Below are positions 6,328 through 51,423 of a stretch of 64,000 nucleotides of DNA, piece after piece. How positions within the stretch are numbered: the stretch's first letter is position 1; each line of letters begins with the position of its first letter. Below the pieces are notes generated by a model. It made no database searches. It saw only the letters and a list, made by a program, of their open reading frames with translations, and was not told the DNA's origin. The position numbers and the translations under genes were made by a program. The stretch comes from Ruminococcus sp. (lineage in GTDB: Bacteria > Bacillota > Clostridia > Oscillospirales > Acutalibacteraceae), in NCBI GenBank assembly GCA_017433905.1, contig JAFRGI010000026.1, positions 52,790-116,789 of the forward strand. The letters are read 5' to 3'.

Positions 6328-7417
6328 TTGGCGGAGGACAAGGGATTTGAAGTCTTGAGGTTAGTGTATCATAACGTTTCACTATGTAGCAATTTCCGCT
6401 ATTTCAAGCCATTTTCAGTATATCGGTGTTTCATTTTGTTGCACTTCATTTCACATTGATAAAGAACACATAAAGAACACGAAAATCAAAAAGAAGTAGC
6501 CAAAGACGGTATGAATCAAAAAACAGGCGGTGGGCTATCCGAGAAAACGCAAAAGCATTATCTGACATTTATTAGTGATGTAATGCTCTACGCGAAAAAA
6601 TGCGGTTACATTGACAACAATCCTTGTAGAGATATTACCTTTACAAAATCAGCGAAAAAAGAAAAAGAGGTGTATTCTCTTGATGAAGCTAAAGCGTTAT
6701 TAGCGGCAATCGACGAGAAAGCACCATTGAATTACAGACTATTCTTTAATTTGTTGGCTTACAGCGGCATGCGGCGCGGTGAAGCGTTAGGTTTGGAATA
6801 TAAGGATATTAACTTTGAAACGTCCGTATTAACCATTTGCAGGACGTCAAATTATCATCAAGGATATGGAGTATACACCGATACCCCGAAAACAAAATCA
6901 AGTTATCGTTCTTTGTATATCCAAAACTCTATTATTAAATTGATTCAGCGGTTGCGTGAAGAACAACAAGAGCAAGCGAAAAAATGCGGTGATTTGTGGG
7001 TTGAATGTGACAGGCTTTTTACAACTTGGAACGGCAAGCCGTTACACCCGAGCGCACCCTACAAATGGCTTAAACGCTTCTGTGAGAATGAGAAACTAAC
7101 ATTTAAGGCATTGCATAGCTTTAGGCACTTCGTAGCTTCACAGGCATTAGCAAGCGGCATTGACGTGAAAGCGGTATCAAATATGTTAGGGCATAGCCAA
7201 ACAAGCACCACGCTAAACATTTACGCTCACGCCGTTCAGCAGGCAAACGAGAACGCATTAAACAGCGTTGCAAAATTGCTTGAAACATGATAATACATAA
7301 CGAATAAAGAACACGATAAAGAACATAGAGATGTCCGAGCAAAAAAGAAAACCCGAAAACGGCTTAAATAAGCCATTTTCGAGCTTCGTGGGGTTGGCGG
7401 AGGACAAGGGATTTGAA
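6328..7417. mobile_element. Collapsed integrative element at the tRNA-Ser(GCT) 3' end
   Basis: 24-bp direct repeat TTGGCGGAGGACAAGGGATTTGAA at 6328-6351 and 7394-7417 (tRNA 3' end) flanks an AT-richer segment containing only an integrase fragment. Confidence 0.9.
6511..7290 (+). pseudogene. Tyrosine integrase, N-terminally truncated
   Basis: GMRRGE, TPKT, HSFRH, LGH and IYAH catalytic motifs present; ORF begins inside the core-binding domain; 259 aa against ~400 typical. Confidence 0.85.
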
Positions 7418-21694: not shown

Positions 21695-22060
21695 TTAGGC
21701 TGTCCGCCTTTCGTCTTGTTTGGTTTCTTCTGCTGCGTCGGTTGTGTTCGGCAGAGCGAAGGTTCCAATGTAGCGGAAATAGATGTCGATTTGCTGCGAT
21801 GAGGTTTGGCTGTGCTTTTTCTCACGCTCGTGAACAACGATTTTGCTGATGAAGGTTCGCAGTACCTCCGGCGTCAGTTCCTCTACATGAACATATTTCC
21901 TGACAATATCAAGGAACTTCTGCACATTGGTACACTCGCTTTTGAGTGTATCAATTTCTTTTTGCAATCCTGGAATCGCCGCTTCCAGTTCTTTTTGTTC
22001 ATCGTTGTAATCAAGGGATAACATTCTATATTGCTCATCGCTGATACGTCCAAGAACGTT
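21695..22060 (-). pseudogene. C-terminal DUF4368 fragment of a large serine recombinase (TnpX-like)
   Basis: GRISDEQYRMLSLDYNDEQKEL...ELTPEVLRTFISKIVVHE...QQIDIYFRYIG; catalytic N-terminus absent. Confidence 0.82.
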
Positions 22061-22289
22061 AGGCCGCACTGTCAAAATCATTATCTATGAGCCGCTTCAC
22101 GCCGTCTATAACCGTGTGCTTGTTGCCTAAATCAAAAATGGAATTTACAACGTAATCCTTTTTGCCGATAGTGTATAGGTGTTGAGTGATCAGCTGACTG
22201 TTTTCTATCTTGAAGTTAGTTCTCCGATTAATAGCCACCGCCACAGAAGACTGATAGTCCGGTTGAGTTATAATTCTGATTTCATCCAT
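22059..22289 (-). CDS. TnpW-like transposon-encoded protein
   Basis: YTIGKKDYVVNSIF...VIDGVKRLI pattern; lies directly upstream of the recombinase fragment. Confidence 0.65.
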   Translation of the reverse strand: MDEIRIITQPDYQSSVAVAINRRTNFKIENSQLITQHLYTIGKKDYVVNSIFDLGNKHTVIDGVKRLIDNDFDSAA

Positions 22290-35820: not shown

Positions 35821-35881
35821 TTCATATGATTATATGTTCATTTGTTTGTTTTATTATAGCACATGTATCAGGCTTTGTCAA
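35821..35881 (-). promoter_or_regulatory. Promoter and SmtB/CzrA-type operator of the arsR-cadA operon
   Basis: TTGACA(35876-35881)-17-TATAAT(35853-35858); imperfect IR CATATGATTATATGTTCATTTG at 35823-35844. Confidence 0.75.
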
Positions 35882-36021
35882 GCTTTATCTGCGGATTTCA
35901 ATAAGCGCATCCAGAAAAGCTTCTGATTTGTCACGAACACGGCTTCGTTTTTTTGTGTGGACAAGCGGAGCGGCATTTGTTATAATAATGATAATCGATA
36001 TTTGTTTCGAAAGGTAAAATA

Positions 36022-36864
36022 ATGGATAAATTTATCAATAACCGAAAAATAACGGCATTATGGACTTGTGCTGTTTACGGAATCATCTGCTGTACAGCAG
36101 CAGGCTGCACGCGGTCGGGGAACAAGACTTCGCCTTCTGCAGCCCCTGCCACTGCATCCGACACGACGGATTCTCAGCCTTCAACCGCGCCGATGGATAC
36201 ATCCGCTACGTCTGACGAGGCAACGACGAACGGCAGTTTGATTGATATAGACGTCATAATCCAGGACGAACTGGAGTCGGGATGCGAGATATATGCAGCA
36301 GTGATGCTGCTTCATCATTACAACTACAACGTGGACGAGTTCACCCTCACGCAGGATTATTTACCCGTCAGTCCGACTTATTTCGGCTACGACGGAAATT
36401 ACTACGGACCCGATATGAATTCCGCTTTCGCAGGTGAACCGGTGTTAGGCTACGGCGCCTACGCGCCCGTTTTGGAACGGACGATCAATGATTATCTTGC
36501 AGACCAGGAGACAACGTATTCCGCCGTGGTGGAAAAAGGCATCACGCTGGATAATCTTTGTAATAAATACATCGACGCAGAGGATCCCGTGATGGTCTGG
36601 ATCACCACTGATATGGAACTGCCCGAGGATTATGTGACATGGACGGTGGACTTCGCGGACGAAAACGCCGTCACGGAACCGGGAGATGATTTCTCTTGGC
36701 CGATCAACCAGCATTGTGTGTTGCTGACTGGATTTGACAGCGAAAACTTTTATTTTGCAGATTCGCTTGAAGGAACTATTACCTGCTATGACCGCGAACA
36801 GTGTGAAAAAGTTTTTGAGGCAATCGGTTCACAGGCGGTTGCGCTGCAGCACCAAGAAAACTGA
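36022..36864 (+). CDS. C39-like peptidase domain lipoprotein
   Basis: Lipobox AAGC, Ser/Thr/Ala-rich linker, QDELESGCE (Q...C), HCVLLTGFD, FADSL. Confidence 0.8.
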   Translation: MDKFINNRKITALWTCAVYGIICCTAAGCTRSGNKTSPSAAPATASDTTDSQPSTAPMDTSATSDEATTNGSLIDIDVIIQDELESGCEIYAAVMLLHHYNYNVDEFTLTQDYLPVSPTYFGYDGNYYGPDMNSAFAGEPVLGYGAYAPVLERTINDYLADQETTYSAVVEKGITLDNLCNKYIDAEDPVMVWITTDMELPEDYVTWTVDFADENAVTEPGDDFSWPINQHCVLLTGFDSENFYFADSLEGTITCYDREQCEKVFEAIGSQAVALQHQEN

Positions 36865-36881
36865 ACAGGAGAGAAAACGAC

Positions 36882-39341
36882 ATGGCTTTTTTCGGAAAAT
36901 TGTATCTGGATAAAGAAAAGGATATCATCATTGAGTTGGATATGACCGAAGAATGTCTGCGCTATACTTTACGCACGCCCAACCACGCAAAAGGTAACTT
37001 AATCACCAATCTCGCACTACTCTGTGGTTTGCCGCTGAGCACGGGAGACGACGGTTTGAAGGTGATCCGCAACGAGGTGCCTTGCTATGTGGACGAGCGT
37101 AACCGCGAGGTGTACGTCCTGCGTCTGGCAGATACCAAAGTCGCGAATATCTATCCGAACGGCGCCATCGAACGCAAAGCGTATATTCCCGCTATTTCCA
37201 AAACGCTAATGAGCCAGACGAAAGACTACCGCTTGGATGTTCAAAAAACGCTTGTCAAAACTTATATACGACGCGAATATAAGTTCTGCACAGACCTGCA
37301 CACGCATATGAGCGCAAATCTCGACGCGGATCTGCTGATTGCTCTCGGGGTCTATCATCAAATCCGGTATCCGCTGTATTACATCAAAAAACTGCAGCTC
37401 CGCTGCACGGAAGAACAGAACCGCTTACTCACTAAACGACGAAAGGAAGCGGAAAAACGATTCGCAGACTCTCCGCTCAGCGGCAAGTATCTTGCGCGGA
37501 AAATAGATGACAATACTTTTATCAACTTCGCCGATTTTATTCTCAATAATTTGGGAAACGCAGCTTATAATATTCCCAAGATCCGCGCTTCGCTGACCAT
37601 TCTCAAGGACGGTCAGGCGGTGTTTACCAATTTGGAAAAGGTCTATTTGTACCGTTATGTGTTTACCAAAGGAATTCCCTTTGAAGAGCATATTTCACTG
37701 ATCAATTACGGCAGTATTCCCGATCAGGATATCGTGGAGGCTATCGGACAGATGATACGCGACGGCGCCGATCCCCGATACAAAGATTTGTCGTTGTACC
37801 AAAACAAGCTGCTTTGGATTGCGCGCAGCAGCAAAAAGCGCGGCGTGACTTATCTGGAGATTTCCGACACTGCTCTTGTAAAGCCCGCGAGCGCAGCGCA
37901 GACGCTGGCGCAGGCGCACACCGTACTGCCGCACATTACGCGTGAAACGGGTGTAACCATCCGTTTTTTGGCAGCACTGCGACGCATTCCGCTAACGATT
38001 ATTCGCGACAAAGCAGCTCCACAGGAGGATACGCAGCGCCAGCTGCGTGTGATTCGTGCCATTGCCGACGATCCTTATGTCGCAGGCAGCGATATTGTCG
38101 GCGAAGAGATCAACGATATACGCGAGCTGCGCGATGTCATCGGAGAACTGGTGAGCATTGCCGCGGAGCATAAGGGCTTTGTCATTCGGATCCACGCCGG
38201 CGAAAATGACGGTCTGCGCGATAACGTTGCCAATTCCCTTGCCTGCGTGCGCGAAGCATTGGCGGAGGGACAGCCAATACCTCGTTTGCGAATCGGTCAC
38301 GGACTGTATACCGCCAATCTGCGTTCGCCGCGCGGCCGACAACTCATGCGTGAGCTCCGCGATAGCGGGGCGGTGCTGGAATTTCAGCTTACCTCCAACG
38401 TACGTCTGAATAATCTCAGCGCGCTCGGCAATCATCCGCTGCGGCAGTATCTGCACGGCGGCGTCCGGTGCGTGCAGGGAACAGATGGCGGCGCTTTGTA
38501 CGGTACGGATTCCATCGACGAACAGCTCGCTCTCGAGCGTCTGCTCGATCTTTCCCGCGAAGATATGCTTGCCATGAAACGTGCCGAGAACGAAGTACTG
38601 GCACAGAGCATGCTCGATTTTGAGGAAAAATCCAGCATGTTCGACGCACAGATAAACGGCGATATAGAGACATTTCTGAATGAACGTATCGCACAGATCG
38701 TGCCGGTAAAAACGCCGATTGTGATTGCGCCGCAAAAGCTGGACAGTACAGAATGCCTTCGGGAGCAAATTCGGGAGCTTCCTGCCGATAAAGTACCGAT
38801 CGTGCTGCTCGGCGGCAGCTTCAACAGCAACCGGCACGACACGCGCGTCAAAGAACCTTTGCGCATTCTTCTTCGCGAACTGATCAACCGACTCGATCCC
38901 AAACAGGTCTGCTTTGTGATCGGGAACCGGCTAACGGGCTATGAGCGCGAATTGCTGCATTTCGCAGACGGCAGGTTCGAGATTTTTGCCATCGTTCCCA
39001 CGCGCATCTCGGCAGCGGAGGCGCGCCGTTTGCAAAAGAGCGGCGTCGGCGTACGCGTATCCATTGAGCCGGCGCGGATGGCGTTGTATAAAAGCTTTGC
39101 CTATGAAATTTTTAAACGCCGTCCATCGGTGGTGATCGCTCTCGACGGCAATTCCGCCGGTGCAAATACCGTTCAGGAAGCACATAACGGAAAAAAAGAA
39201 TCGCGGATTTTTGTTAACCGCCGCGCACCTATGCTCTGCGCAAAAGCGCTCGCTATTCAGGGCTATGTTACCTTTGTCGAGGACGTCCGCTCCGTAAACG
39301 TGATTTTGCGAGATGTTCAGCGTATGTACCAAAGCATGTAA
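36882..39341 (+). CDS. Adenosine/AMP deaminase-family protein with a C-terminal SLOG-like domain
   Basis: DLHTH (H140/H142), IHAGE (H438/E441), RIGHG (H473), EFQLTSN, GTDG (D535); C-terminal PIVLLGGS...VIALDGNSAGANTVQEA. Confidence 0.8.
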   Translation: MAFFGKLYLDKEKDIIIELDMTEECLRYTLRTPNHAKGNLITNLALLCGLPLSTGDDGLKVIRNEVPCYVDERNREVYVLRLADTKVANIYPNGAIERKAYIPAISKTLMSQTKDYRLDVQKTLVKTYIRREYKFCTDLHTHMSANLDADLLIALGVYHQIRYPLYYIKKLQLRCTEEQNRLLTKRRKEAEKRFADSPLSGKYLARKIDDNTFINFADFILNNLGNAAYNIPKIRASLTILKDGQAVFTNLEKVYLYRYVFTKGIPFEEHISLINYGSIPDQDIVEAIGQMIRDGADPRYKDLSLYQNKLLWIARSSKKRGVTYLEISDTALVKPASAAQTLAQAHTVLPHITRETGVTIRFLAALRRIPLTIIRDKAAPQEDTQRQLRVIRAIADDPYVAGSDIVGEEINDIRELRDVIGELVSIAAEHKGFVIRIHAGENDGLRDNVANSLACVREALAEGQPIPRLRIGHGLYTANLRSPRGRQLMRELRDSGAVLEFQLTSNVRLNNLSALGNHPLRQYLHGGVRCVQGTDGGALYGTDSIDEQLALERLLDLSREDMLAMKRAENEVLAQSMLDFEEKSSMFDAQINGDIETFLNERIAQIVPVKTPIVIAPQKLDSTECLREQIRELPADKVPIVLLGGSFNSNRHDTRVKEPLRILLRELINRLDPKQVCFVIGNRLTGYERELLHFADGRFEIFAIVPTRISAAEARRLQKSGVGVRVSIEPARMALYKSFAYEIFKRRPSVVIALDGNSAGANTVQEAHNGKKESRIFVNRRAPMLCAKALAIQGYVTFVEDVRSVNVILRDVQRMYQSM

Positions 39342-39466
39342 ATTAGGAAACACATATGCATCGCTAACGATGTATTCTGCGTATCGAAGATATATGCGGA
39401 GAGGGTGGAAGATGATCGTTCCATCCTTCCCAAACAAAACCGAATCTAACAGAGGAGAGTGATTTT

Positions 39467-40006
39467 GTGAAAAACAAATTATACGAACGGGCAAGACTGG
39501 CAACGCGCGAGCTTTGCGAAACAGCACAACTGAAAAAAGGCAATGTGATGATTGTCGGCTGTTCTTCAAGCGAAATCGGCGGCGGCGTTATCGGACATAA
39601 TTCGAGCGTAGAAATCGCCGAGGAGGTATTCGGCGGCATTTACGACGAGCTTCGAGAGCGCGGCATTTATCTTGCGGCGCAGTGCTGTGAGCATCTCAAC
39701 CGTGCGATTGTTACCGAACGCGCAGCGGTTCCGTATGCCAATGAGGTCTGCGTAATGCCGCAGCCAAAAGCCGGCGGTTCATTTGCAACAACGGCATACC
39801 GCACCTTTAAGGATCCCGTGGTACTGGAGGAGATCCGGGCGGATGCCGGGCTGGATATCGGCGGTACGCTGATCGGTATGCACCTAAAAAAAGTTGCCGT
39901 ACCCGTCAGACTAAGCATTGACCACATTGGTGAAGCGATTCTCCTTGCAGCGCGTACCAGACCGAAATATATCGGCGGCAGCCGAGCGGTTTATCCCGGT
40001 GAATAA
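39467..40006 (+). CDS. TIGR01440/UPF0340 (YwlG-like) protein
   Basis: VGCSSSE, QCCEHLNRA, KAGGS, GTLIGMH, RPKYIGG. Confidence 0.9.
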   Translation: MKNKLYERARLATRELCETAQLKKGNVMIVGCSSSEIGGGVIGHNSSVEIAEEVFGGIYDELRERGIYLAAQCCEHLNRAIVTERAAVPYANEVCVMPQPKAGGSFATTAYRTFKDPVVLEEIRADAGLDIGGTLIGMHLKKVAVPVRLSIDHIGEAILLAARTRPKYIGGSRAVYPGE

Positions 40007-40095
40007 GAATAACAAAAAGACGGCGATTCTCTGGCAATCGCTGTCTGTATACCATGGCTTGTTTCATAAATGATAAAACGCTTAAAAAGAGAGGA

Positions 40096-41130
40096 TTATA
40101 TACTGTTCTCGAGAAGTGCCATTAAATTTTCAGCCGTGAAACGCTTGTCTGTATCAAATGCGGCATTCAGTGCTTCCGTATTGTCATAGGAATGCTCCAC
40201 CTCTTTGGAGTACCGCTGCAAAATGCGCATGCGCGGATACGGATAATCCTTTGCCGCAAATAATGCATCCATCTTTCCCGTCACGATGTAGGCACAGACA
40301 ATGCGCTGAATCGAATAGAGCACGTCGCCCGAATGAATGGCCTCCAGATAGTAACGATATACATAATACAACGCAAATTTCTCAAAATCGCAGGCAAAAT
40401 CCGCGCGGACGTTCAGCAGTTCCGCGTGCCGGACGGTTTCTTCCAGAGCAGATTTCCAAGCGTCGCTCATGATTTCGAATCGCAAATGCATATCGAAAAT
40501 AAAGCTGTCCCCGCTGCTTTCTGTGTTATCCAGACAAAGCGGAGAAGGCTCCTCGCCGCGCAGCAAACTCTGCACTTGTGCATTGAATTCCAGACAATCT
40601 GCAAGACGAATTGCAAACGGTTCACGATCGTCGAGCAGCAAGTCCAGCGTACGCTCGCGCGCCTTCAGCAGAAAACTCATGAAATCATCACTGTTTTCGC
40701 AGGTATGCAGCTCCTGCTCTCCGCCGAAATCCGCATATGCCTCTCGTGAATGGCGCAGCATAAAACGCGCCGCTTCTGGACAGGCAAAAGAGAGAATATG
40801 CTCGCAGAAATCATCATAATTGACAGCGACGCGCGGAAAATCAGCACAGGTTTTGCTGAGATGTTCTTCTCCGACACCGATAAAAATATCGCAGAGCATG
40901 TCTTTGTTCCAAAACGGGCATCTGCCCTCCGTGGCAGGAAACACGCGTTCTCCGTATTCGTCTGTCACGGCAAACGCACGCATTTTGTCACCCAGAGGTC
41001 CCTGTACGGTGCGGTAAAACGCTTCGGTTTCACTGTCAAGGTCGATGTCCCAGTCCTTGCAGCAGCTATCCTCGCAGCGGTTGGCAATGCACCTGAATTC
41101 ATGATAAAAGCTCGGATAAATGTCCGGCAT
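40096..41130 (-). CDS. FliB (flagellin lysine-N-methylase) family Fe-S protein
   Basis: FRCIANRCEDSCCKDWDIDLD, CPF...LCDI, TCADFPR, LSFACPEAA. Confidence 0.8.
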   Translation of the reverse strand: MPDIYPSFYHEFRCIANRCEDSCCKDWDIDLDSETEAFYRTVQGPLGDKMRAFAVTDEYGERVFPATEGRCPFWNKDMLCDIFIGVGEEHLSKTCADFPRVAVNYDDFCEHILSFACPEAARFMLRHSREAYADFGGEQELHTCENSDDFMSFLLKARERTLDLLLDDREPFAIRLADCLEFNAQVQSLLRGEEPSPLCLDNTESSGDSFIFDMHLRFEIMSDAWKSALEETVRHAELLNVRADFACDFEKFALYYVYRYYLEAIHSGDVLYSIQRIVCAYIVTGKMDALFAAKDYPYPRMRILQRYSKEVEHSYDNTEALNAAFDTDKRFTAENLMALLENSI

Positions 41131-41368
41131 GACGTCACTTCCTTATACGCCGGGTAGACTAAACAACCCCCGGATCTTTCGGGCTTTGGCATATTTTCCT
41201 TCCCCGCAGTCATCATAATATCACATTTTTTATCGTTTGGCAATACGCTTTGCTTTTTCGAAAAGCGCCTGAAAATGCACGAGAAAGCATTTGACGCCGC
41301 CTTGACAAACCCACTGTAAAATGCGATAATATATGACATGTATAAACATAAACTGAAGGAGAGATTTT

Positions 41369-44062
41369 ATGGCTAAAGAGATGGCAAAATCCTATAAGCC
41401 CTCTGAATTTGAGGACAGAATCTACGATTTTTGGCTGAAAGGAAATTATTTTCACGCAACACCCGATCCCGATAAACAACCGTATACCATCGTCATGCCG
41501 CCGCCCAACATCACGGGTCAGCTGCATATCGGTCATGCGCTCGACGAAACCCTGCAGGATATCCTGATCCGTTACAAACGTATGTCGGGCTATTCCGCTC
41601 TCTGGCTGCCCGGCACCGATCACGCCTCCATTGCCACGGAGGCAAAAATCGTTGAGACAATGCGCGCGGAGGGCATTTCCAAGGATGAACTCGGACGCGA
41701 AAAGTTCCTGGAGCGCGCATGGGAATGGAAGCGCGAGTACGGTGGCAGAATTACCAGACAGCTCCGCAAATTAGGCGTCAGCTGCGACTGGGAACGCGAG
41801 CGGTTCACTTTGGATGAGGGCTGTTCCGAGGCTGTACGCGAAGTCTTTGTTAAGCTCTATGAGGACGGAAAGATTTACCGCGGCAACCGCATGGTTAACT
41901 GGTGTCCGCACTGCAAAACCTCTATCTCCGACGCAGAGGTGGAATATGAAGAGCAGCAAGGTCATTTTTGGCATATTCTCTACCCTGTCAAGGAAACGGG
42001 CGAAATGCTGGAAATTGCCACTACCCGTCCCGAAACCATGCTCGGCGATACGGCTGTTGCTATCAATAAGGACGACGAGCGCTACAAACACCTTCATGGC
42101 TGTCATGTTGTGTTACCGCTGATTAACAAGGAAATCCCGATCGTCTGCGACGAGCATGCCGATATGGAAAAAGGTACGGGCGTCGTCAAGATCACCCCTG
42201 CCCACGATCCCAACGACTACGAGGTCGGTCAGCGGTGCAGTCTGCCGATTGTCCGCGTCTTTACCTACGACGGTCATATGACGGGCGCGAAGGATGTGAA
42301 GGCATACGAAGAGTTAAAAGCATCCGGTCGTCTTGCCGAAAAGGAACCCGAGGTACTCGACTGCGGCAAATACGCAGGTATGTCTACCGCAGAAGCAAGA
42401 GAGGCAATCGTTGCCGATTTGACAGCGCTCGGCCTGCTGCGTCAGGTAAAACCACTCACACACGATGTCGGCACCTGTTACCGCTGCCACACCACCATCG
42501 AACCGATGGTGTCCAAACAGTGGTTTGTTCGCATGGAACCGCTTGCCAAACCTGCCATTCAGGCAGTGCGCAACGGCGAAACAAAATTTATTCCCGAACG
42601 CTTTGAAAAGATATATTTCCATTGGATGGAGAATATTAAAGACTGGTGTATTTCGCGCCAGCTCTGGTGGGGACACCGTATTCCTGCCTATTACTGCGAG
42701 GAGTGCGGCGGTGTAACGGTAGCAAAGGAAGCACCGTCGGCTTGCTCCCGTTGCGGCTGCACACATCTGACGCAGGATGAGGATACGCTGGATACGTGGT
42801 TCAGTGCCGCGCTCTGGCCGTTCTCCACGCTTGGATGGCCGAAAAAAACTGCCGATCTGGACTATTTTTACCCCACCAATACGTTAGTTACGGGCTACGA
42901 TATCATTTTCTTCTGGGTGGCGCGCATGATTTTTTCCGCTATTGAGCACATGGGTCAAGCGCCATTCGATACGGTATTTATTCATGGTATCGTCCGTGAC
43001 GAACAGGGCAGAAAAATGAGCAAATCCCTGGGCAACGGCGTGGATCCGCTGGAGGTCATTGAAAAATACGGCGCTGACGCCCTGCGCTTCCTTCTTGTCA
43101 CGGGTAACTCTCCGGGAAATGATATCCGTTATTCCGAAAAACGCATCGAGGCATGCTCAGGCTTCGCCAATAAGCTCTGGAATGCTTCGCGTTATGTGCA
43201 TATGAACATCGACGACTACGACGTCAAAAATGAATTCCCCGAGGTTCTCGCCACCGAGGACAAGTGGATCCTTTCCACTCTCAATTCCGTGGCAAAAGAG
43301 GTCAACGAAAACCTGGGTAAATTTGAGTTGGGTATCGCCGTACAGAAGGTCTACGAATTCATCTGGGACTGCTACTGTGACTGGTACATTGAGTTGAGCA
43401 AAGCGCGCCTGCAAAGCGAAGGCGAATCCGCGCAGAACGCGCGTCAGGTGTTGCTGTATGTGCTTGACCAAATTTTGCGGCTGCTTCATCCGTTTATGCC
43501 CTATATCACAGAGGAAATCTGGCAGACAATCCCCCATGAGGGTGAAACCGTTATGCTGTGCGCTTATCCGACGTATCGACCCGAGTTGGATTTCCCCGAG
43601 GCAGCACAGGAAATGCAGCGCATCATGGACGCAATCCGCGCTATCCGTAACCGCAGAAACGAGATGAATGTACCACCCTCACGCAAGGCAAAAATTTATG
43701 TCGCCACCAAATTCCCCAAGACTTTTGAGGATGGTCAGGCGTTCTTCATCAAACTTGCTTCGGCGAGCGACGTAGAAGTTGGTGAAAGTTTTACGCTGGA
43801 GGGTACGGTGACGATCGTTACGCCGGACGCAAAGGTGTATATCCCTATGGACGAATTGGTCGACAAGGAAGCCGAGCTCAAACGCCTCGGCAAGGAATTG
43901 GAGCAGCTCCAAAAACGCCTTGCGCAGTCTGAAGGAAAGCTGAACAATCAGGGCTTTGTTTCCAAGGCGCCCGCCAGCGTTGTTGAAGGCGTAAAAAAAC
44001 AGGCTGAAAAGGAAAAAGAGCAAATTGCTTTGATGGAAGCAGCAATTGCAGCACTGAAATAA
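41369..44062 (+). CDS. valS: Valine--tRNA ligase
   Basis: PPPNITGQLHIGH, WCISRQLWWGH, KMSKS, C-terminal coiled coil. Confidence 0.98.
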   Translation: MAKEMAKSYKPSEFEDRIYDFWLKGNYFHATPDPDKQPYTIVMPPPNITGQLHIGHALDETLQDILIRYKRMSGYSALWLPGTDHASIATEAKIVETMRAEGISKDELGREKFLERAWEWKREYGGRITRQLRKLGVSCDWERERFTLDEGCSEAVREVFVKLYEDGKIYRGNRMVNWCPHCKTSISDAEVEYEEQQGHFWHILYPVKETGEMLEIATTRPETMLGDTAVAINKDDERYKHLHGCHVVLPLINKEIPIVCDEHADMEKGTGVVKITPAHDPNDYEVGQRCSLPIVRVFTYDGHMTGAKDVKAYEELKASGRLAEKEPEVLDCGKYAGMSTAEAREAIVADLTALGLLRQVKPLTHDVGTCYRCHTTIEPMVSKQWFVRMEPLAKPAIQAVRNGETKFIPERFEKIYFHWMENIKDWCISRQLWWGHRIPAYYCEECGGVTVAKEAPSACSRCGCTHLTQDEDTLDTWFSAALWPFSTLGWPKKTADLDYFYPTNTLVTGYDIIFFWVARMIFSAIEHMGQAPFDTVFIHGIVRDEQGRKMSKSLGNGVDPLEVIEKYGADALRFLLVTGNSPGNDIRYSEKRIEACSGFANKLWNASRYVHMNIDDYDVKNEFPEVLATEDKWILSTLNSVAKEVNENLGKFELGIAVQKVYEFIWDCYCDWYIELSKARLQSEGESAQNARQVLLYVLDQILRLLHPFMPYITEEIWQTIPHEGETVMLCAYPTYRPELDFPEAAQEMQRIMDAIRAIRNRRNEMNVPPSRKAKIYVATKFPKTFEDGQAFFIKLASASDVEVGESFTLEGTVTIVTPDAKVYIPMDELVDKEAELKRLGKELEQLQKRLAQSEGKLNNQGFVSKAPASVVEGVKKQAEKEKEQIALMEAAIAALK

Positions 44063-46982: not shown

Positions 46983-47465
46983 ATGGATCATAAAACAGTG
47001 GATTTATCCCTGCTGGACGGAGTTCTTGCGGAATACGCGTCCGTCAAGGGAAGCTTGATTACCATTTTACAACACACACAGGATATTTACGGCTATTTGC
47101 CGCGCGAGGCGATTGAGCTGATTTCCGAGAAAACCGGAATCGCCACCTCCGAGATCATGGGCGTCGGAACCTTTTACACACAGTTCCGCTTTGAGCCTGT
47201 CGGTAAATATCTGATTATGCTTTGTCAGGGAACAGCCTGTCACGTTAATTCCTCCGAGCTGATTTTGCAGACCATCAAGGATGAACTGCATATCGAGGAC
47301 GGTCAAACCACCGAGGACGGTCTGTTTTCGCTCAAATGCGTGGCGTGTCTCGGTTGCTGTTCACTGTCCCCCGTTATGATGATTAACGAGGACACCTACG
47401 GCAGCCTGACGCCTGAAAAGACCAAAAAAATTTTGAAAGAATTAAGGGAGGCGGCGCAGCAGTGA
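46983..47465 (+). CDS. NuoE/HydC-like [2Fe-2S] subunit (StnA-like)
   Basis: CQGTACH and CLGCC motifs. Confidence 0.9.
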   Translation: MDHKTVDLSLLDGVLAEYASVKGSLITILQHTQDIYGYLPREAIELISEKTGIATSEIMGVGTFYTQFRFEPVGKYLIMLCQGTACHVNSSELILQTIKDELHIEDGQTTEDGLFSLKCVACLGCCSLSPVMMINEDTYGSLTPEKTKKILKELREAAQQ

Positions 47466-49207
47466 GAATCGTGATCGGTCAAGGCTCCTGCGGTATTGCC
47501 GCGGGCGCCGAAAAAGTCAGAAAGGCGCTCTTAGCCGCCCATGTAAATCCCGCCGATGTATCCATTACGGGTTGTATCGGCATGTGCTGGCTCGAGCCGA
47601 TTGTCGACGTATATGACGACAACAACCAGCTTACCAGACTCGTCAGAGTCAATGAGAACGACGCTGCCGCGATTGCTTCTTTCATGGAGACCGGCGACAG
47701 CAGCGCAGTGGAAAGCCTGAAGGTCAGCGAGGAGGACAGCGAATTTCTCTCCAAACAAACCCGTATTGCACTGCGCAACTGCGGTATCATTAATCCGGAG
47801 CAAATCGATGCCTACACCGCAGCAGGCGGCTACTCGGCTCTCAAAAAAGCGCTCTGCGACCTGACTCCCGAGGAAGTTATAGAAATCATTAAAACCTCCG
47901 GTCTGGCAGGCAGAGGCGGCGCGGGCTTCCCGACATGGTTCAAGTGGAATGCTGCGCGTCAAAGTGCGGGCGAGGAAAAATACCTCATCTGTAACGCCGA
48001 CGAGGGAGATCCCGGTGCCTTTATGGACAGAGCAGTTATTGAGTCTGATCCCCACAACCTGATTGAAGGCATGCTGATCGGTGCATACGCCATCGGTGCA
48101 AAACACGCGGTCGTTTATGTCCGTGCAGAGTATCCGCTCGCTATCAAACGTCTGAAAAATGCTATTGCGCAGGCAACAGAAAAGGGCATCATTGGAGAAC
48201 ACATTTTCGGATCCGACTTCTCATGCGATTTTACAATCAAGGCGGGCGCAGGCGCGTTTGTCTGCGGTGAAGAAACGGCTCTGATCGAGAGCCTGGAAGG
48301 CCACAGAGGCATGCCCAGACTCAAGCCTCCCTTCCCTGCTCAGTCAGGCTTTTGGAGAAAGCCGTCCAACATTAACAACGTTGAAACCTTTGCCAACGTC
48401 AGCTGGATTATCAACAACGGCGGCGAGGCATTCGCGGCAATGGGCACCGATGGCTCCAAGGGCACCAAGGTATTCGCTGTCACCGGTAAGGTTAAACGCT
48501 CCGGTCTGGTAGAGATCCCGATGGGTAAAACCCTGCGCGACGTTATCTTTGACATCGGCGGCGGTATGAAAACCGACAAAGCATTCAAGGCTGTCCAGAT
48601 GGGCGGACCCTCGGGCGGATGTATTCCCGCCAACCTGATCGACACCGTTATTGATTATAAGGCTCTCGGCGCTACAGGCGCCATTATGGGCTCCGGCGGT
48701 ATGGTTGTCATGGACGAAAGCACCTGTATGGTCGGTATGGCAAAGTTCTTCCTCGACTTTACCGCCAAGGAAAGCTGCGGCAAGTGCATCCACTGCCGTA
48801 TCGGTACTAAGCGTATGCTCGAAATGCTGGAGCGTATCACCAAGGGCGAGGGCAAAGAAGGCGATATTGAACTGCTTGAAGAGCTGTGCTACTCCATTAA
48901 GGACGGCGCGCTCTGCGGTCTCGGTCAAACAGCCCCCAACCCCGTACTGACCACCATTAAATATTTCAGAGACGAGTACGAAGCCCACATCAAGGATCAA
49001 AAATGTCCTGCAGGTGAGTGCAGCGATCTAATTGAATACAAAATCATCGCCGACAAGTGTAGAGGATGCACGCTCTGCGCGAAAAACTGCCCTGTCGATG
49101 CGATCAGCGGCACGGTCAAAAATCCCCATGTGATTAACACAGAAAAATGCATCAAGTGCGGCAAGTGCTACAGTTCCTGCCGTTTTGACGCCATTGTCAA
49201 GGAATAA
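47462..49207 (+). CDS. NuoF/HydB-like FMN/NADH-binding subunit (StnB-like)
   Basis: GRGGAGFPT, NADEGDPG, GAGAFVCGEETAL, ESCGKCxxC, two C-terminal [4Fe-4S] motifs. Confidence 0.92.
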   Translation: MRIVIGQGSCGIAAGAEKVRKALLAAHVNPADVSITGCIGMCWLEPIVDVYDDNNQLTRLVRVNENDAAAIASFMETGDSSAVESLKVSEEDSEFLSKQTRIALRNCGIINPEQIDAYTAAGGYSALKKALCDLTPEEVIEIIKTSGLAGRGGAGFPTWFKWNAARQSAGEEKYLICNADEGDPGAFMDRAVIESDPHNLIEGMLIGAYAIGAKHAVVYVRAEYPLAIKRLKNAIAQATEKGIIGEHIFGSDFSCDFTIKAGAGAFVCGEETALIESLEGHRGMPRLKPPFPAQSGFWRKPSNINNVETFANVSWIINNGGEAFAAMGTDGSKGTKVFAVTGKVKRSGLVEIPMGKTLRDVIFDIGGGMKTDKAFKAVQMGGPSGGCIPANLIDTVIDYKALGATGAIMGSGGMVVMDESTCMVGMAKFFLDFTAKESCGKCIHCRIGTKRMLEMLERITKGEGKEGDIELLEELCYSIKDGALCGLGQTAPNPVLTTIKYFRDEYEAHIKDQKCPAGECSDLIEYKIIADKCRGCTLCAKNCPVDAISGTVKNPHVINTEKCIKCGKCYSSCRFDAIVKE

Positions 49208-49215
49208 GGAGGGGT

Positions 49216-51423
49216 GTGAACATGGTCAATTTAACAATTAACGGTAAAGCGGTTCAGGCTCCCGAAGGCTCCACAATTTTAGACGCAGCACGCCTGGCGG
49301 ATATCTACATTCCGACCCTCTGCTATGACAAAGCTGTCGAGGTTTACGGCGCCTGTGGTCTCTGCGTTGTGGAAGCGCAGGGTATTCCCAAGCTGCTCCG
49401 CTCCTGCTCTGCCAAGGTCAGCGAGGGAATGGTCGTCAATACGGAGAGCGAGCGCGTTGTTCAGTCCAGAAAAATCGCGATGGAGCTGCTGATGTCTGCC
49501 CACGACGGCGACTGCGTAGCTCCCTGTCAACTGAACTGCCCGGCAAAAACCGATTGTCAGGGCTACGTCGGTTTAATCGCCAACGGCGAATACGACGCTG
49601 CCATCAAACTGATTAAGAACAAAATCCCTCTTCCTGCTTCTATCGGACGCGTATGTCCCCATCCCTGCGAAAAGGCGTGCCGGAGAAAGAATGTCGAGGA
49701 ACCGATCAATATCGCGCAGCTCAAAGCGTTTGCAGCCGATCTGGATTTGAAAGCGGACAGTTATATTCCCGCGTGCATGCCTTCTACCGGCAAAACTGTT
49801 GCCGTCATCGGCGGCGGTCCTGCAGGTCTAACCGCTGCCTATTATCTGACCATCATGGGACACAGCGTCACCGTTTACGACATGATGGATCAAATGGGTG
49901 GTATGCTCCGCTACGGTATTCCGCAGTACAGACTTCCCAAGGAGGTACTGGACAAGGAAATCGCTATCATTGAAAAGACAGGCGTCAAGTTCGTCAACCA
50001 TGTGAAGCTCGGCAAGGACTTTACCGTTGCCTCTCTGAAAGAGAAAAATGACGCGGTCATCGTTGCGGTCGGCGCGTGGAAATCCAGTTCTATGCGCACA
50101 CCCGGCGAAGATTTAGAGGGCGTATACGGCGGCATTGACTTCCTCAGAGCCGTTATTCAGGGCAATGCACCTGCTATCGGCGAAAAAGTCGCCATCTGCG
50201 GCGGCGGCAATACCGCCATGGATGCATGCCGCACGGCTGTGCGTCTCGGCGCAAAAGAAGTATATGTCATTTATCGCAGAACTCGTAATGAAATGCCTGC
50301 CGATAAGCTGGAAATTGACGAAGCGGAAGAAGAGGGCGTTATCTACAAGTTCCTTACGAATCCGCTCTCGTTTAACGGCGAAAACGGTAAGCTCAAGTCC
50401 GTTACGCTCCAACACATGGAACTCGGTGAACCCGACGCTTCCGGCAGACGCAGTCCGGTTCCGATTGAGGGCAAAACCGAGGAAATCCCGCTCGACAGCG
50501 TAATTCTTGCAATTGGACAGAAGCTTGTCGCCGAGGATGTCTCTGAATTGACTCTCAATAACCGAGGCAATATTGAATCCGATCCCGATTTCTTCACCAC
50601 CGATATGGAAGGCGTGTTTGCCATCGGCGACGCAACTAACAGAGGCGCGTCTATTGCGATTGAAGCCATCGGAGAAGCTGATCGCTGCGCCAAGGCCGTT
50701 GATGCATTCTTAAACGGTCAGGAGCTGGATACTCGTGTACCATACATCAGCAAACGCGACGAGAATACTATTGACTATTCCGACCGCCAGAAACATGACA
50801 GACTCACCCCGAATGTGCTTCCTCCCGAGGTAAGAAAAAAGAACTTTGACGAGGTTTCCCTTGGCTTCACAGAGGATAAAGCACGCGAAGAAGCCAAACG
50901 CTGTCTCGAATGCGGATGCCGCGAGTACTTTAAGTGCAAGCTGCTCAAGGTTGCACAGCGCTACGACATCATGCCCGAGCGTTTTCAGGGCGTTATGCCG
51001 CAGAAATATACTCACGATGAAAATGCGTTTATCGAGAGGAATACGGCAAAATGTATTCTCTGCGGCTTATGTGTACGTTCCTGCCGTGAGGTCATGAATC
51101 TTTCCTCCATCGGTCTGCTTGGTCGCGGCTTCACAACGGATGTCTCGCCTGCATTCGCTCTGCCGCTCGATCAAACCAACTGTAACAACTGTGGTCTCTG
51201 CGTACAGCTCTGTCCGACCGGATCACTGACCGAAAAATTTGCGCTTGAAAAGCAAGTTCCTCTCGATGAGCAATATACGGAGGAATTTGTGGACATCAAC
51301 GGCAACCGTTCCTCTGTGCTGGTATCGCGCTACAACGGTAAGATTCTCAGAGTCATTCCCAACGATGAGATATCTCGCAACAGCGGTCTCAGCCGTGACG
51401 AGCTTATGTCGAAGATAAAATAA
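49216..51423 (+). CDS. Fe-S flavoprotein: NuoG/HydA-type N-terminus with an inserted GltD-like FAD/NADPH module (StnC-like, short)
   Basis: IPTLC...GACGLC...SC, APCQLNCP, GRVCPHPCE, GGGPAG, GGGNTAMD, CILCGLC, CNNCGLC; no H-cluster or Mo domain. Confidence 0.85.
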   Translation: MNMVNLTINGKAVQAPEGSTILDAARLADIYIPTLCYDKAVEVYGACGLCVVEAQGIPKLLRSCSAKVSEGMVVNTESERVVQSRKIAMELLMSAHDGDCVAPCQLNCPAKTDCQGYVGLIANGEYDAAIKLIKNKIPLPASIGRVCPHPCEKACRRKNVEEPINIAQLKAFAADLDLKADSYIPACMPSTGKTVAVIGGGPAGLTAAYYLTIMGHSVTVYDMMDQMGGMLRYGIPQYRLPKEVLDKEIAIIEKTGVKFVNHVKLGKDFTVASLKEKNDAVIVAVGAWKSSSMRTPGEDLEGVYGGIDFLRAVIQGNAPAIGEKVAICGGGNTAMDACRTAVRLGAKEVYVIYRRTRNEMPADKLEIDEAEEEGVIYKFLTNPLSFNGENGKLKSVTLQHMELGEPDASGRRSPVPIEGKTEEIPLDSVILAIGQKLVAEDVSELTLNNRGNIESDPDFFTTDMEGVFAIGDATNRGASIAIEAIGEADRCAKAVDAFLNGQELDTRVPYISKRDENTIDYSDRQKHDRLTPNVLPPEVRKKNFDEVSLGFTEDKAREEAKRCLECGCREYFKCKLLKVAQRYDIMPERFQGVMPQKYTHDENAFIERNTAKCILCGLCVRSCREVMNLSSIGLLGRGFTTDVSPAFALPLDQTNCNNCGLCVQLCPTGSLTEKFALEKQVPLDEQYTEEFVDINGNRSSVLVSRYNGKILRVIPNDEISRNSGLSRDELMSKIK

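Follow-up and report, generated by a model that had tools for sequence, protein, structure and literature searches.

Here we describe a gene that fuses an adenosine/AMP deaminase-type barrel to a predicted SLOG domain, located at positions 36882..39341 of a 64,000-nucleotide stretch of Ruminococcus sp. DNA (assembly GCA_017433905.1, contig JAFRGI010000026.1, positions 52,790 to 116,789 of the forward strand; this whole stretch is called the window). An earlier reading made from the letters alone (the sequence-only reading) had proposed an open reading frame (ORF) of 819 amino acids (aa) with three parts, and this frame was confirmed, with an ATG start preceded by AGGAG. The residues H140, H142, H438, E441, H473, D535 and G536 were each found where that reading had placed them, as were the three C-terminal motifs that it quoted, which start at residues 639, 678 and 750. 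The architecture, namely an N-terminal domain of no known family, an intact deaminase barrel and a SLOG fold, also stood when examined by Pfam, AF2 modelling and fold searches. The parts of the gene are the following:

36867..36871, plus strand: ribosome-binding site AGGAG, 10 nt before the ATG, from the sequence
36882..39341, plus strand: whole deaminase-SLOG gene, 819 aa (N-domain, deaminase barrel, linker, SLOG), ATG start; Pfam and AF2 model
36882..37280, plus strand: beta-rich N-terminal domain, aa 1-133, without a family match; across 32 homologues 32 of its 133 positions are invariant
37281..37361, plus strand: barrel strand 1 with HxH (H140, H142) and S144 in place of the 5'-OH-binding Asp of adenosine deaminase (ADA; murine D19); alignments
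37362..37796, plus strand: helical lid segment, aa 161-305, exceeding that of ADA by about 100 aa; model and alignment
37797..38627, plus strand: remaining deaminase TIM barrel, aa 306-582, with HAGE 438-441, H473 and D535-G536; Pfam, alignments and fold
38628..38780, plus strand: variable helical linker, aa 583-633, with no invariant position among 58; model and conservation
38781..39338, plus strand: SLOG-fold domain, aa 634-819; predicted model and conservation

The gene is neither a chance reading frame nor an assembly artefact, because 5571 of 7999 scored candidates were homologues (the best 120 being full-length with 70-100% identity) and a contig from an independent public sequencing run covers 35851-41517 with five letters differing; contigs from RNA runs had flat cover and were taken as evidence for the sequence, not for transcription. 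Over the whole protein A_deaminase was the sole Pfam match (aa 314-588, E 1.6e-16). The AF2 model, built on 118 sequences (predicted local distance difference test, pLDDT, 87.9; predicted template modelling score 0.84), begins with an N-domain rich in beta structure; a barrel bearing a long helical lid follows, and a helical linker leads from it to the alpha/beta C-domain. Mean identity across 32 sequences was 68% in the N-domain, 64% in the barrel, 56% in the SLOG domain and 28% in the linker, and the conservation of the N-domain hence matches that of the enzyme part. No family could be assigned to this N-domain by Pfam, and all of its Atlas structure rows had TM values below 0.5. A fold search of BFVD gave no match at E 0.001. 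One claim of the sequence-only reading had to be reduced, the insertion of about 170 aa after HxH: 184 aa lie between HxH and strand 2 of the barrel, compared with about 82 in the ADA of Salmonella, and the net gain in this alignment is therefore only about 100 aa.

The deaminase part matched ADA and ADAL with Z 25.6 (root-mean-square deviation, rmsd, 3.6; 315 residues aligned), in agreement with Foldseek, and also Cad1 (8z3k; Z 21.5, rmsd 3.5, 321 aligned), RdrB (Z 18.0) and AMP deaminase (Z 16.4). Its TIM barrel with HxH, H, catalytic E, H and D places the protein in the adenosine/AMP deaminase superfamily (PF00962), and H140, H142, H438, E441, H473 and D535 were invariant in 42 of 42 diverse relatives. 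The classical ADA equivalog TIGR01430 gave 46 bits against a cut-off of 216.55, other NCBIfam ADA models also falling far below their cut-offs, and two residues of classical ADA are swapped: the position of murine D19, two after HxH, is S144 and that of D296 is G536. In a redundant set of 124 close proteins the D19 position holds N in 109, S in 14 and another residue in one, and G follows the catalytic Asp in all of them; in 162 distant proteins A predominates at the D19 position (133), D occurs there in none of the 156 that could be parsed, and G follows the catalytic Asp in 143 (14 unparsed, 5 other). All 32 sequences compared share ten invariant Arg or Lys residues in lid and barrel, those in the lid being R206, R235, K242, K253, R258 and K263, for which a role in phosphate binding may be envisaged.

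A preprint states that D19 excludes phosphorylated substrates and that it is missing from AMP deaminases and from the ADP deaminase DeaR (PMC13733733). TaqCad1 has neither D19 nor D296, converts ATP and not AMP or ADP, and barely acts on adenosine; restoring D296 abolished its activity on ATP (PMC12669630). The proposal that DG in place of the usual DD pair points to altered substrate recognition thus gains support, as the change of the D19 position to S, N or A is a second one and both match TaqCad1. Since both aspartates are replaced, as in this ATP deaminase, the substrate is likely a phosphorylated adenine nucleotide instead of free adenosine. Among the candidates we tentatively put ATP or ADP first, with AMP as a possible substrate and ADP-ribose or an NAD-type molecule as a rather unlikely one, some other compound seeming improbable and adenosine very improbable indeed.

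Modelled alone, the C-terminal domain reached a pLDDT of 96. Its best fold match was the Moco carrier MCP (Z 13.7, rmsd 3.1, 158 aligned), other top matches being LOG proteins, DprA and the MHR1/2 region of TRPM channels (TRPM2: Z 12.0, rmsd 3.5, 185 aligned). Nineteen of the top 20 VIA rows (Z 13.7-10.2; rank 6 is unannotated) are named proteins that we take to belong to the SLOG superfamily. The SLOG domain of ThsA came at rank 24 (Z 9.6, rmsd 3.8, 152 aligned), the first unrelated fold standing at Z 9.8, and YpsA (2nx2) gave Z 8.3 (rmsd 4.3, 144 aligned). Predicted model and fold search hence agree with the SLOG fold proposed earlier for this domain. The assignment comes from the fold and from distant relatives and not from Pfam, whose SLOG models matched none of 40 window-clade C-domains; the window-clade C-terminal alignment likewise found no SLOG match in Pfam or among PDB sequences. 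Toprim was rejected for this domain, its matches being sub-threshold and contradicted by the fold.

A distant branch of relatives (about 30-35% identity) keeps the canonical SLOG motifs, with a TGGT loop in 132 of 162 proteins. LSDAT_prok matched 13 of 13 of its SLOG domains, in every case below the curated cut-off, and the best PDB sequence match was nvTRPM2 (E 0.007), the TGGTNxG loop being common to both; a profile comparison matched the branch to the window clade along 176 columns (probability 84%, E 7e-6). The sequence-only reading had likened the last C-terminal motif to the YspA-type SLOG pattern, and this assignment was not supported, the relatives pointing to LSDAT/TRPM. The Pfam model YAcAr matched 0 of 40 near domains, 1 of 13 distant ones (E 0.006) and 1 of 48 relatives (1e-5). 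From the motifs and matches of the distant branch, and from its profile alignment with the window clade, the SLOG domain is probably LSDAT/TRPM-derived and not YspA-type. LSDAT corresponds to the MHR1/2 region that binds ADP-ribose in TRPM2 (PMC13143021, PMC6759353), and SLOG clades comprise enzymes as well as sensors (PMC9503650). In the window protein and its homologues 23 of 164 SLOG positions are invariant, many of them polar; they include G644-G645-S646-F647, E688, Y736-K737-S738, G756, S758, N762, Q765, N769 and K788, and within the window clade GGSF, YKS, GNS, N762, Q765, N769 and K788 are invariant or nearly so. This conservation, alongside a changed TGGTNxG loop, suggests a ligand pocket that has been kept and remodelled.

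Comparison with known systems indicates an undescribed architecture made of known parts. Like Cad1/CAAD (9c67, 8z3k, 9mmw; PMC11645235, PMC12669630) the protein joins a Rossmann-type nucleotide sensor to an ADA-fold barrel, and both have lost the equivalents of murine D19 and D296. However, the sensor of Cad1 is an N-terminal CARF domain and the predicted sensor here is a C-terminal SLOG, the window protein has an extra N-domain and a longer lid, and there are no cas neighbours and no Cas10 in five carrier genomes. The N-domain is beta-rich without a family match, and the structural match to Cad1 covers residues 122-582 only. With neither CARF nor Cas10, the protein is not a member of Cad1, although layout and active site are alike. 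Classical ADA (PF00962, TIGR01430; 6n9m, 6n91) and ADAL/MAPDA (8qch, 6ijm) have in common with it the barrel fold, HxH, HAGE, GHG and the catalytic Asp, but the window protein is 2.4 times longer than classical ADA, carries two extra domains and has the D19 and D296 positions replaced. Thoeris ThsA (SIR2-SLOG; 7uxs, 7uxt) is likewise an enzyme with a C-terminal SLOG, and it binds 3'cADPR via G289-S290 and further residues (bioRxiv 2022.05.07.491051); the loop G645-S646 after strand 1 may be equivalent to G289-S290, which ThsA uses for the diphosphate. The effector here is a deaminase, the ThsA SLOG is only the 24th fold match and no ThsB partner is present. TRPM2, with MHR1/2 (LSDAT SLOG) and NUDT9-H, is similar in fold and in the TGGTNxG loop of the relatives, some of which add a Nudix domain, whereas the window protein has no channel and its clade has a remodelled loop. 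RdrB (8fnw), eukaryotic AMP deaminase (2a3l) and DeaR (PMC13733733) are large nucleotide deaminases with barrel insertions and without D19, yet none has a SLOG domain. No RdrA-like AAA+ ATPase or reb gene was found among the neighbours in the window or recurring in 80 loci, nor any PADLOC match, and the protein belongs to neither Thoeris nor RADAR. The literature searched holds no description of a SLOG-deaminase fusion, although the domain survey that defined SLOG clades may list the architecture in its supplements, and the fusion goes unmentioned in the available portions of PMC7159879, PMC13276650 and PMC11645235.

The genomic context is that of a housekeeping chromosome, with valS, pheST, proS, tuf, fusA and transporters in the window. 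As the sequence-only reading had cautioned, no TIR, cyclase or cas gene is present (0 among 42 + 4 scanned ORFs), nor is an RdrA-like neighbour. The codon use of the gene falls at the 62nd percentile of 448 ORFs and its GC content at third codon positions at the median. Among GTDB genomes 405 of 487 pattern hits encoded a relative, and the best 80 window-clade loci, from rumen and gut Ruminococcus, Lachnospiraceae and Erysipelotrichaceae, were compared. No neighbour is common to these 80 loci, the most recurrent family being ABC ATPases in at most 12 of them (crude ORF calling). We scanned 117 of 143 immediate neighbours, the 26 dropped being mostly orthologous repeats in close kin, and found one each of TIR_2, Fic, WYL, TnpV and Nudix together with some nucleoside hydrolases, the others being metabolic or of no known function. 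The TIR_2 gene (L033:2-634) precedes the homologue by 58 nt in a single Lachnospiraceae metagenome-assembled genome (MAG) and is the sole TIR linkage among them, and an inosine-uridine nucleoside hydrolase adjoins the homologue at L022 and L078 (scan) and at L025 (clustering), in two lineages. No match was found among 72,556 plasmids, phage records held ordinary add genes only, viral contigs gave none, and the window protein matches no PADLOC model. TIR domains including ThsB_TIR were not found in the genome itself (74% complete), ThsB_TIR was found in 0 of 5 carrier genomes and Cas10 (Cmr2/Csm1; TIGR02577, TIGR02578) in 0 of the same 5, two of them complete chromosomes; TIR_2 genes occur in three of the five, all unlinked to the deaminase-SLOG gene. 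The interpretation given by the sequence-only reading is therefore supported in part: a role in defence finds no support in this context, and metabolic control, its alternative, fits the context better, although with so rare a gene a specialised or conflict role may still apply.

Carriers make up 6 of 36 congeners. A quick valS tree was built from G000 and 30 of these 36, with six non-carriers omitted; on it the gene is present in six of seven members of one clade (SH-aLRT 100) and in one outlier, and its gain and loss require three changes against a shuffled mean of 6.5; in one complete genome (G002) the gene lies near valS as well. Cultured carriers are Ruminococcus sp. JE7B6 and JL13D9. Classical ADA occurs in 5 of the 36 congeners, one having both deaminases and 26 neither, and five of the six carrier congeners are without it. 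Replacement of classical ADA is unsupported by these counts (26 of 36 with neither, one with both), and so is replacement of adenine deaminase by the deaminase-SLOG gene. Two close orthologues (L054:6001-8439 and L059:6001-8439) each contain one in-frame TAG, at different codons (178 and 632) where the partner sequence has Glu or Gln, and a neighbouring gene in these loci likewise has a TAG opposite Glu; readthrough or pseudogenes are both possible.

The explanation that we favour, with about an even chance in our judgement, is a ligand-gated adenine-nucleotide deaminase that tunes the adenylate pool as a stand-alone chromosomal enzyme. A nucleotide ligand would bind the predicted SLOG domain, whose occupancy would gate the Zn/Mg-dependent deaminase barrel; the gated barrel would then deaminate ATP, ADP or AMP and lower the adenylate pool under stress, akin to the regulated AMP deaminase of eukaryotes, an analogue in which the adenylate pool is lowered in this way. 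A sensor-gated enzyme is plausible. Several observations weigh against this explanation. The gene was found in 0 of 400 genomes of the order, 3 of 398 of the class and 1 of 400 of the phylum, and a gene so rare is not core metabolism; host families are intermixed on the gene tree (9 changes with a minimum of 4; FastTree, NCBI labels), and such a rare, family-intermixed pattern is also typical of conflict genes. The loop that reads TGGTNxG in the relatives has become IG[NSH][RK]LxGYE in the window clade, so that ligand binding may be altered or lost. Purine metabolism is poorly represented next to the gene, with nucleoside hydrolase at only 3 of 80 loci, and Cad1, the nearest enzyme type to share both active-site changes, acts as an immune effector. 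Clade retention, rarity and the intermixed tree together make this an accessory gene, occasionally moved between gut lineages and afterwards kept.

An immune or dormancy role would fit part of this picture: an orphan effector whose SLOG domain responds to an NAD-derived, ADP-ribose-like signal made elsewhere, and whose barrel converts ATP to ITP and arrests growth as Cad1 does. The two active-site changes found in TaqCad1, the sensor-plus-deaminase layout, the ThsA SLOG match and the rare, patchy, cross-family distribution are in its favour, as are the match of the PADLOC CARF_ADA model to 13 of 15 relatives via their deaminase part and the TIR_2 genes, both that directly upstream at L033 and the unlinked ones in carriers. 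We consider it unlikely, given that the window protein itself lacks a PADLOC match, that TIR adjoins the gene only once, that ThsB_TIR and Cas10 are missing as described above, and that plasmid or viral copies are lacking while retention in the clade and synteny are stable.

Processing of ADP-ribose or other NAD derivatives is a second route by which the same parts could work, with a TRPM-like SLOG binding such molecules and the deaminase making inosine forms of them, or of AMP released by Nudix, to clear a metabolite or signal. The LSDAT_prok and nvTRPM2 matches of the relatives, ADP-ribose binding by TRPM2 MHR1/2 and the fusion of Nudix in 7 of 48 scanned relatives speak for it; but in the window clade Nudix fusions are lacking and the loop is remodelled, every LSDAT match lies under the curated cut-off, and a Nudix partner would equally fit ITP removal, as described for CAAD (PMC13276650), so that we hold this to be quite doubtful. 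Much the same doubt attaches to a constitutive purine-salvage deaminase in which SLOG is structural or a LOG-type nucleosidase feeding the barrel. LOG enzymes and the Moco carrier are among the best fold matches, nucleoside hydrolases adjoin three homologues and classical ADA is mostly missing from carrier congeners. However, the LOG motif PGGxGT..E is not present in the SLOG domain, 5 of 5 carriers have a LOG gene of their own elsewhere, the adenosine-specific aspartates are lost, and the congener counts show no simple replacement of ADA.

The distant branch, whose source names include Saccharibacteria, Clostridia, Bacilli, Christensenellaceae and Alphaproteobacteria MAGs, offers a further context. 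A PGDYG-like domain (PF14083, all matches sub-threshold) is fused or adjacent to the distant deaminase-SLOG, and a profile built from the fused copies only found it in 13 of 27 distant loci against 1 of 80 window-clade loci, that lone match being a GNAT fusion 2.7 kb away. The 13 loci comprise five strong neighbours, three fusions close to the seeds and five weak matches (E 0.004-0.03), and L130-L133 are near-identical:

L121:2562-3206; L122:68-703; L125:46-693; L129:5411-5914; L124:3082-3396: PGDYG-like neighbours
L137, L138, L142: PGDYG-like fusions

A giant protein of 4275 aa (P0251, L142:1-10959) combines deaminase, PGDYG-like and Fic domains, and a deoxyribosyltransferase-like domain is fused in one of the 48 scanned relatives. 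An HD_4 hydrolase with a small RelA/SpoT (alarmone) synthetase stands directly downstream of the distant-branch gene at one locus (L121:6268-8063), and PurO or NT5C occur nearby in single loci, a resolvase in three and Cas9 in one. The PGDYG profile had no match in the PDB and only unknown-function families in PHROGs, its search of the five carrier genomes, run without a positive control, was empty, and the literature searched on PGDYG/PF14083 describes no link to deaminase-SLOG. These distant loci resemble a module centred on nucleotides, the partner of which seems to have been lost in the window clade, and they hint at an undescribed nucleotide module from which that clade derives. In a scenario that we regard as speculative and not very probable, the family would be the effector of such a signalling module in gut and environmental lineages with small genomes: a TRPM2-type ADP-ribose-sensing SLOG would control an ATP-to-ITP deaminase that works with a PGDYG-like partner or with Nudix as an off-switch, and rumen Bacillota would have domesticated it into a stand-alone switch of the adenylate pool or of dormancy.

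To our knowledge, nucleotide deaminases gated by a sensor have been described in immunity alone (Cad1, RADAR). A chromosomal SLOG-gated deaminase with no signal-making partner would be a bacterial counterpart of regulated AMP deaminase, or else an immune effector for an unknown signal. The protein would also provide a soluble, single-gene test of the ligands of prokaryotic LSDAT (TRPM-type) SLOG domains, and through its association with deaminase-SLOG the uncharacterised PGDYG domain gains a first functional context.

Other features around the gene include a directly upstream peptidase and a syntenic downstream gene:

36022..36864, plus strand: peptidase C39-like lipoprotein gene, 17 nt before the deaminase start; Pfam
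40099-41130, minus strand: FliB-like gene (flagellin lysine methylase family), syntenic with the deaminase gene in 6 of 80 loci

The C39 peptidase adjoins the gene in 3 of 80 related loci, and an operon with it or with DUF436 was rejected as lineage-specific only (3 of 80 and 0 of 80 loci, respectively). A truncated-looking phage integrase (window 6511-7287) and a DUF4368 fragment (21698-22081) are mobile-element remnants far from the gene, and window 46983-51423 holds a three-subunit cluster resembling an electron-bifurcating hydrogenase or an NADH-dependent oxidoreductase (NuoE-like, NuoF-like and GltD/Fe-S subunits).

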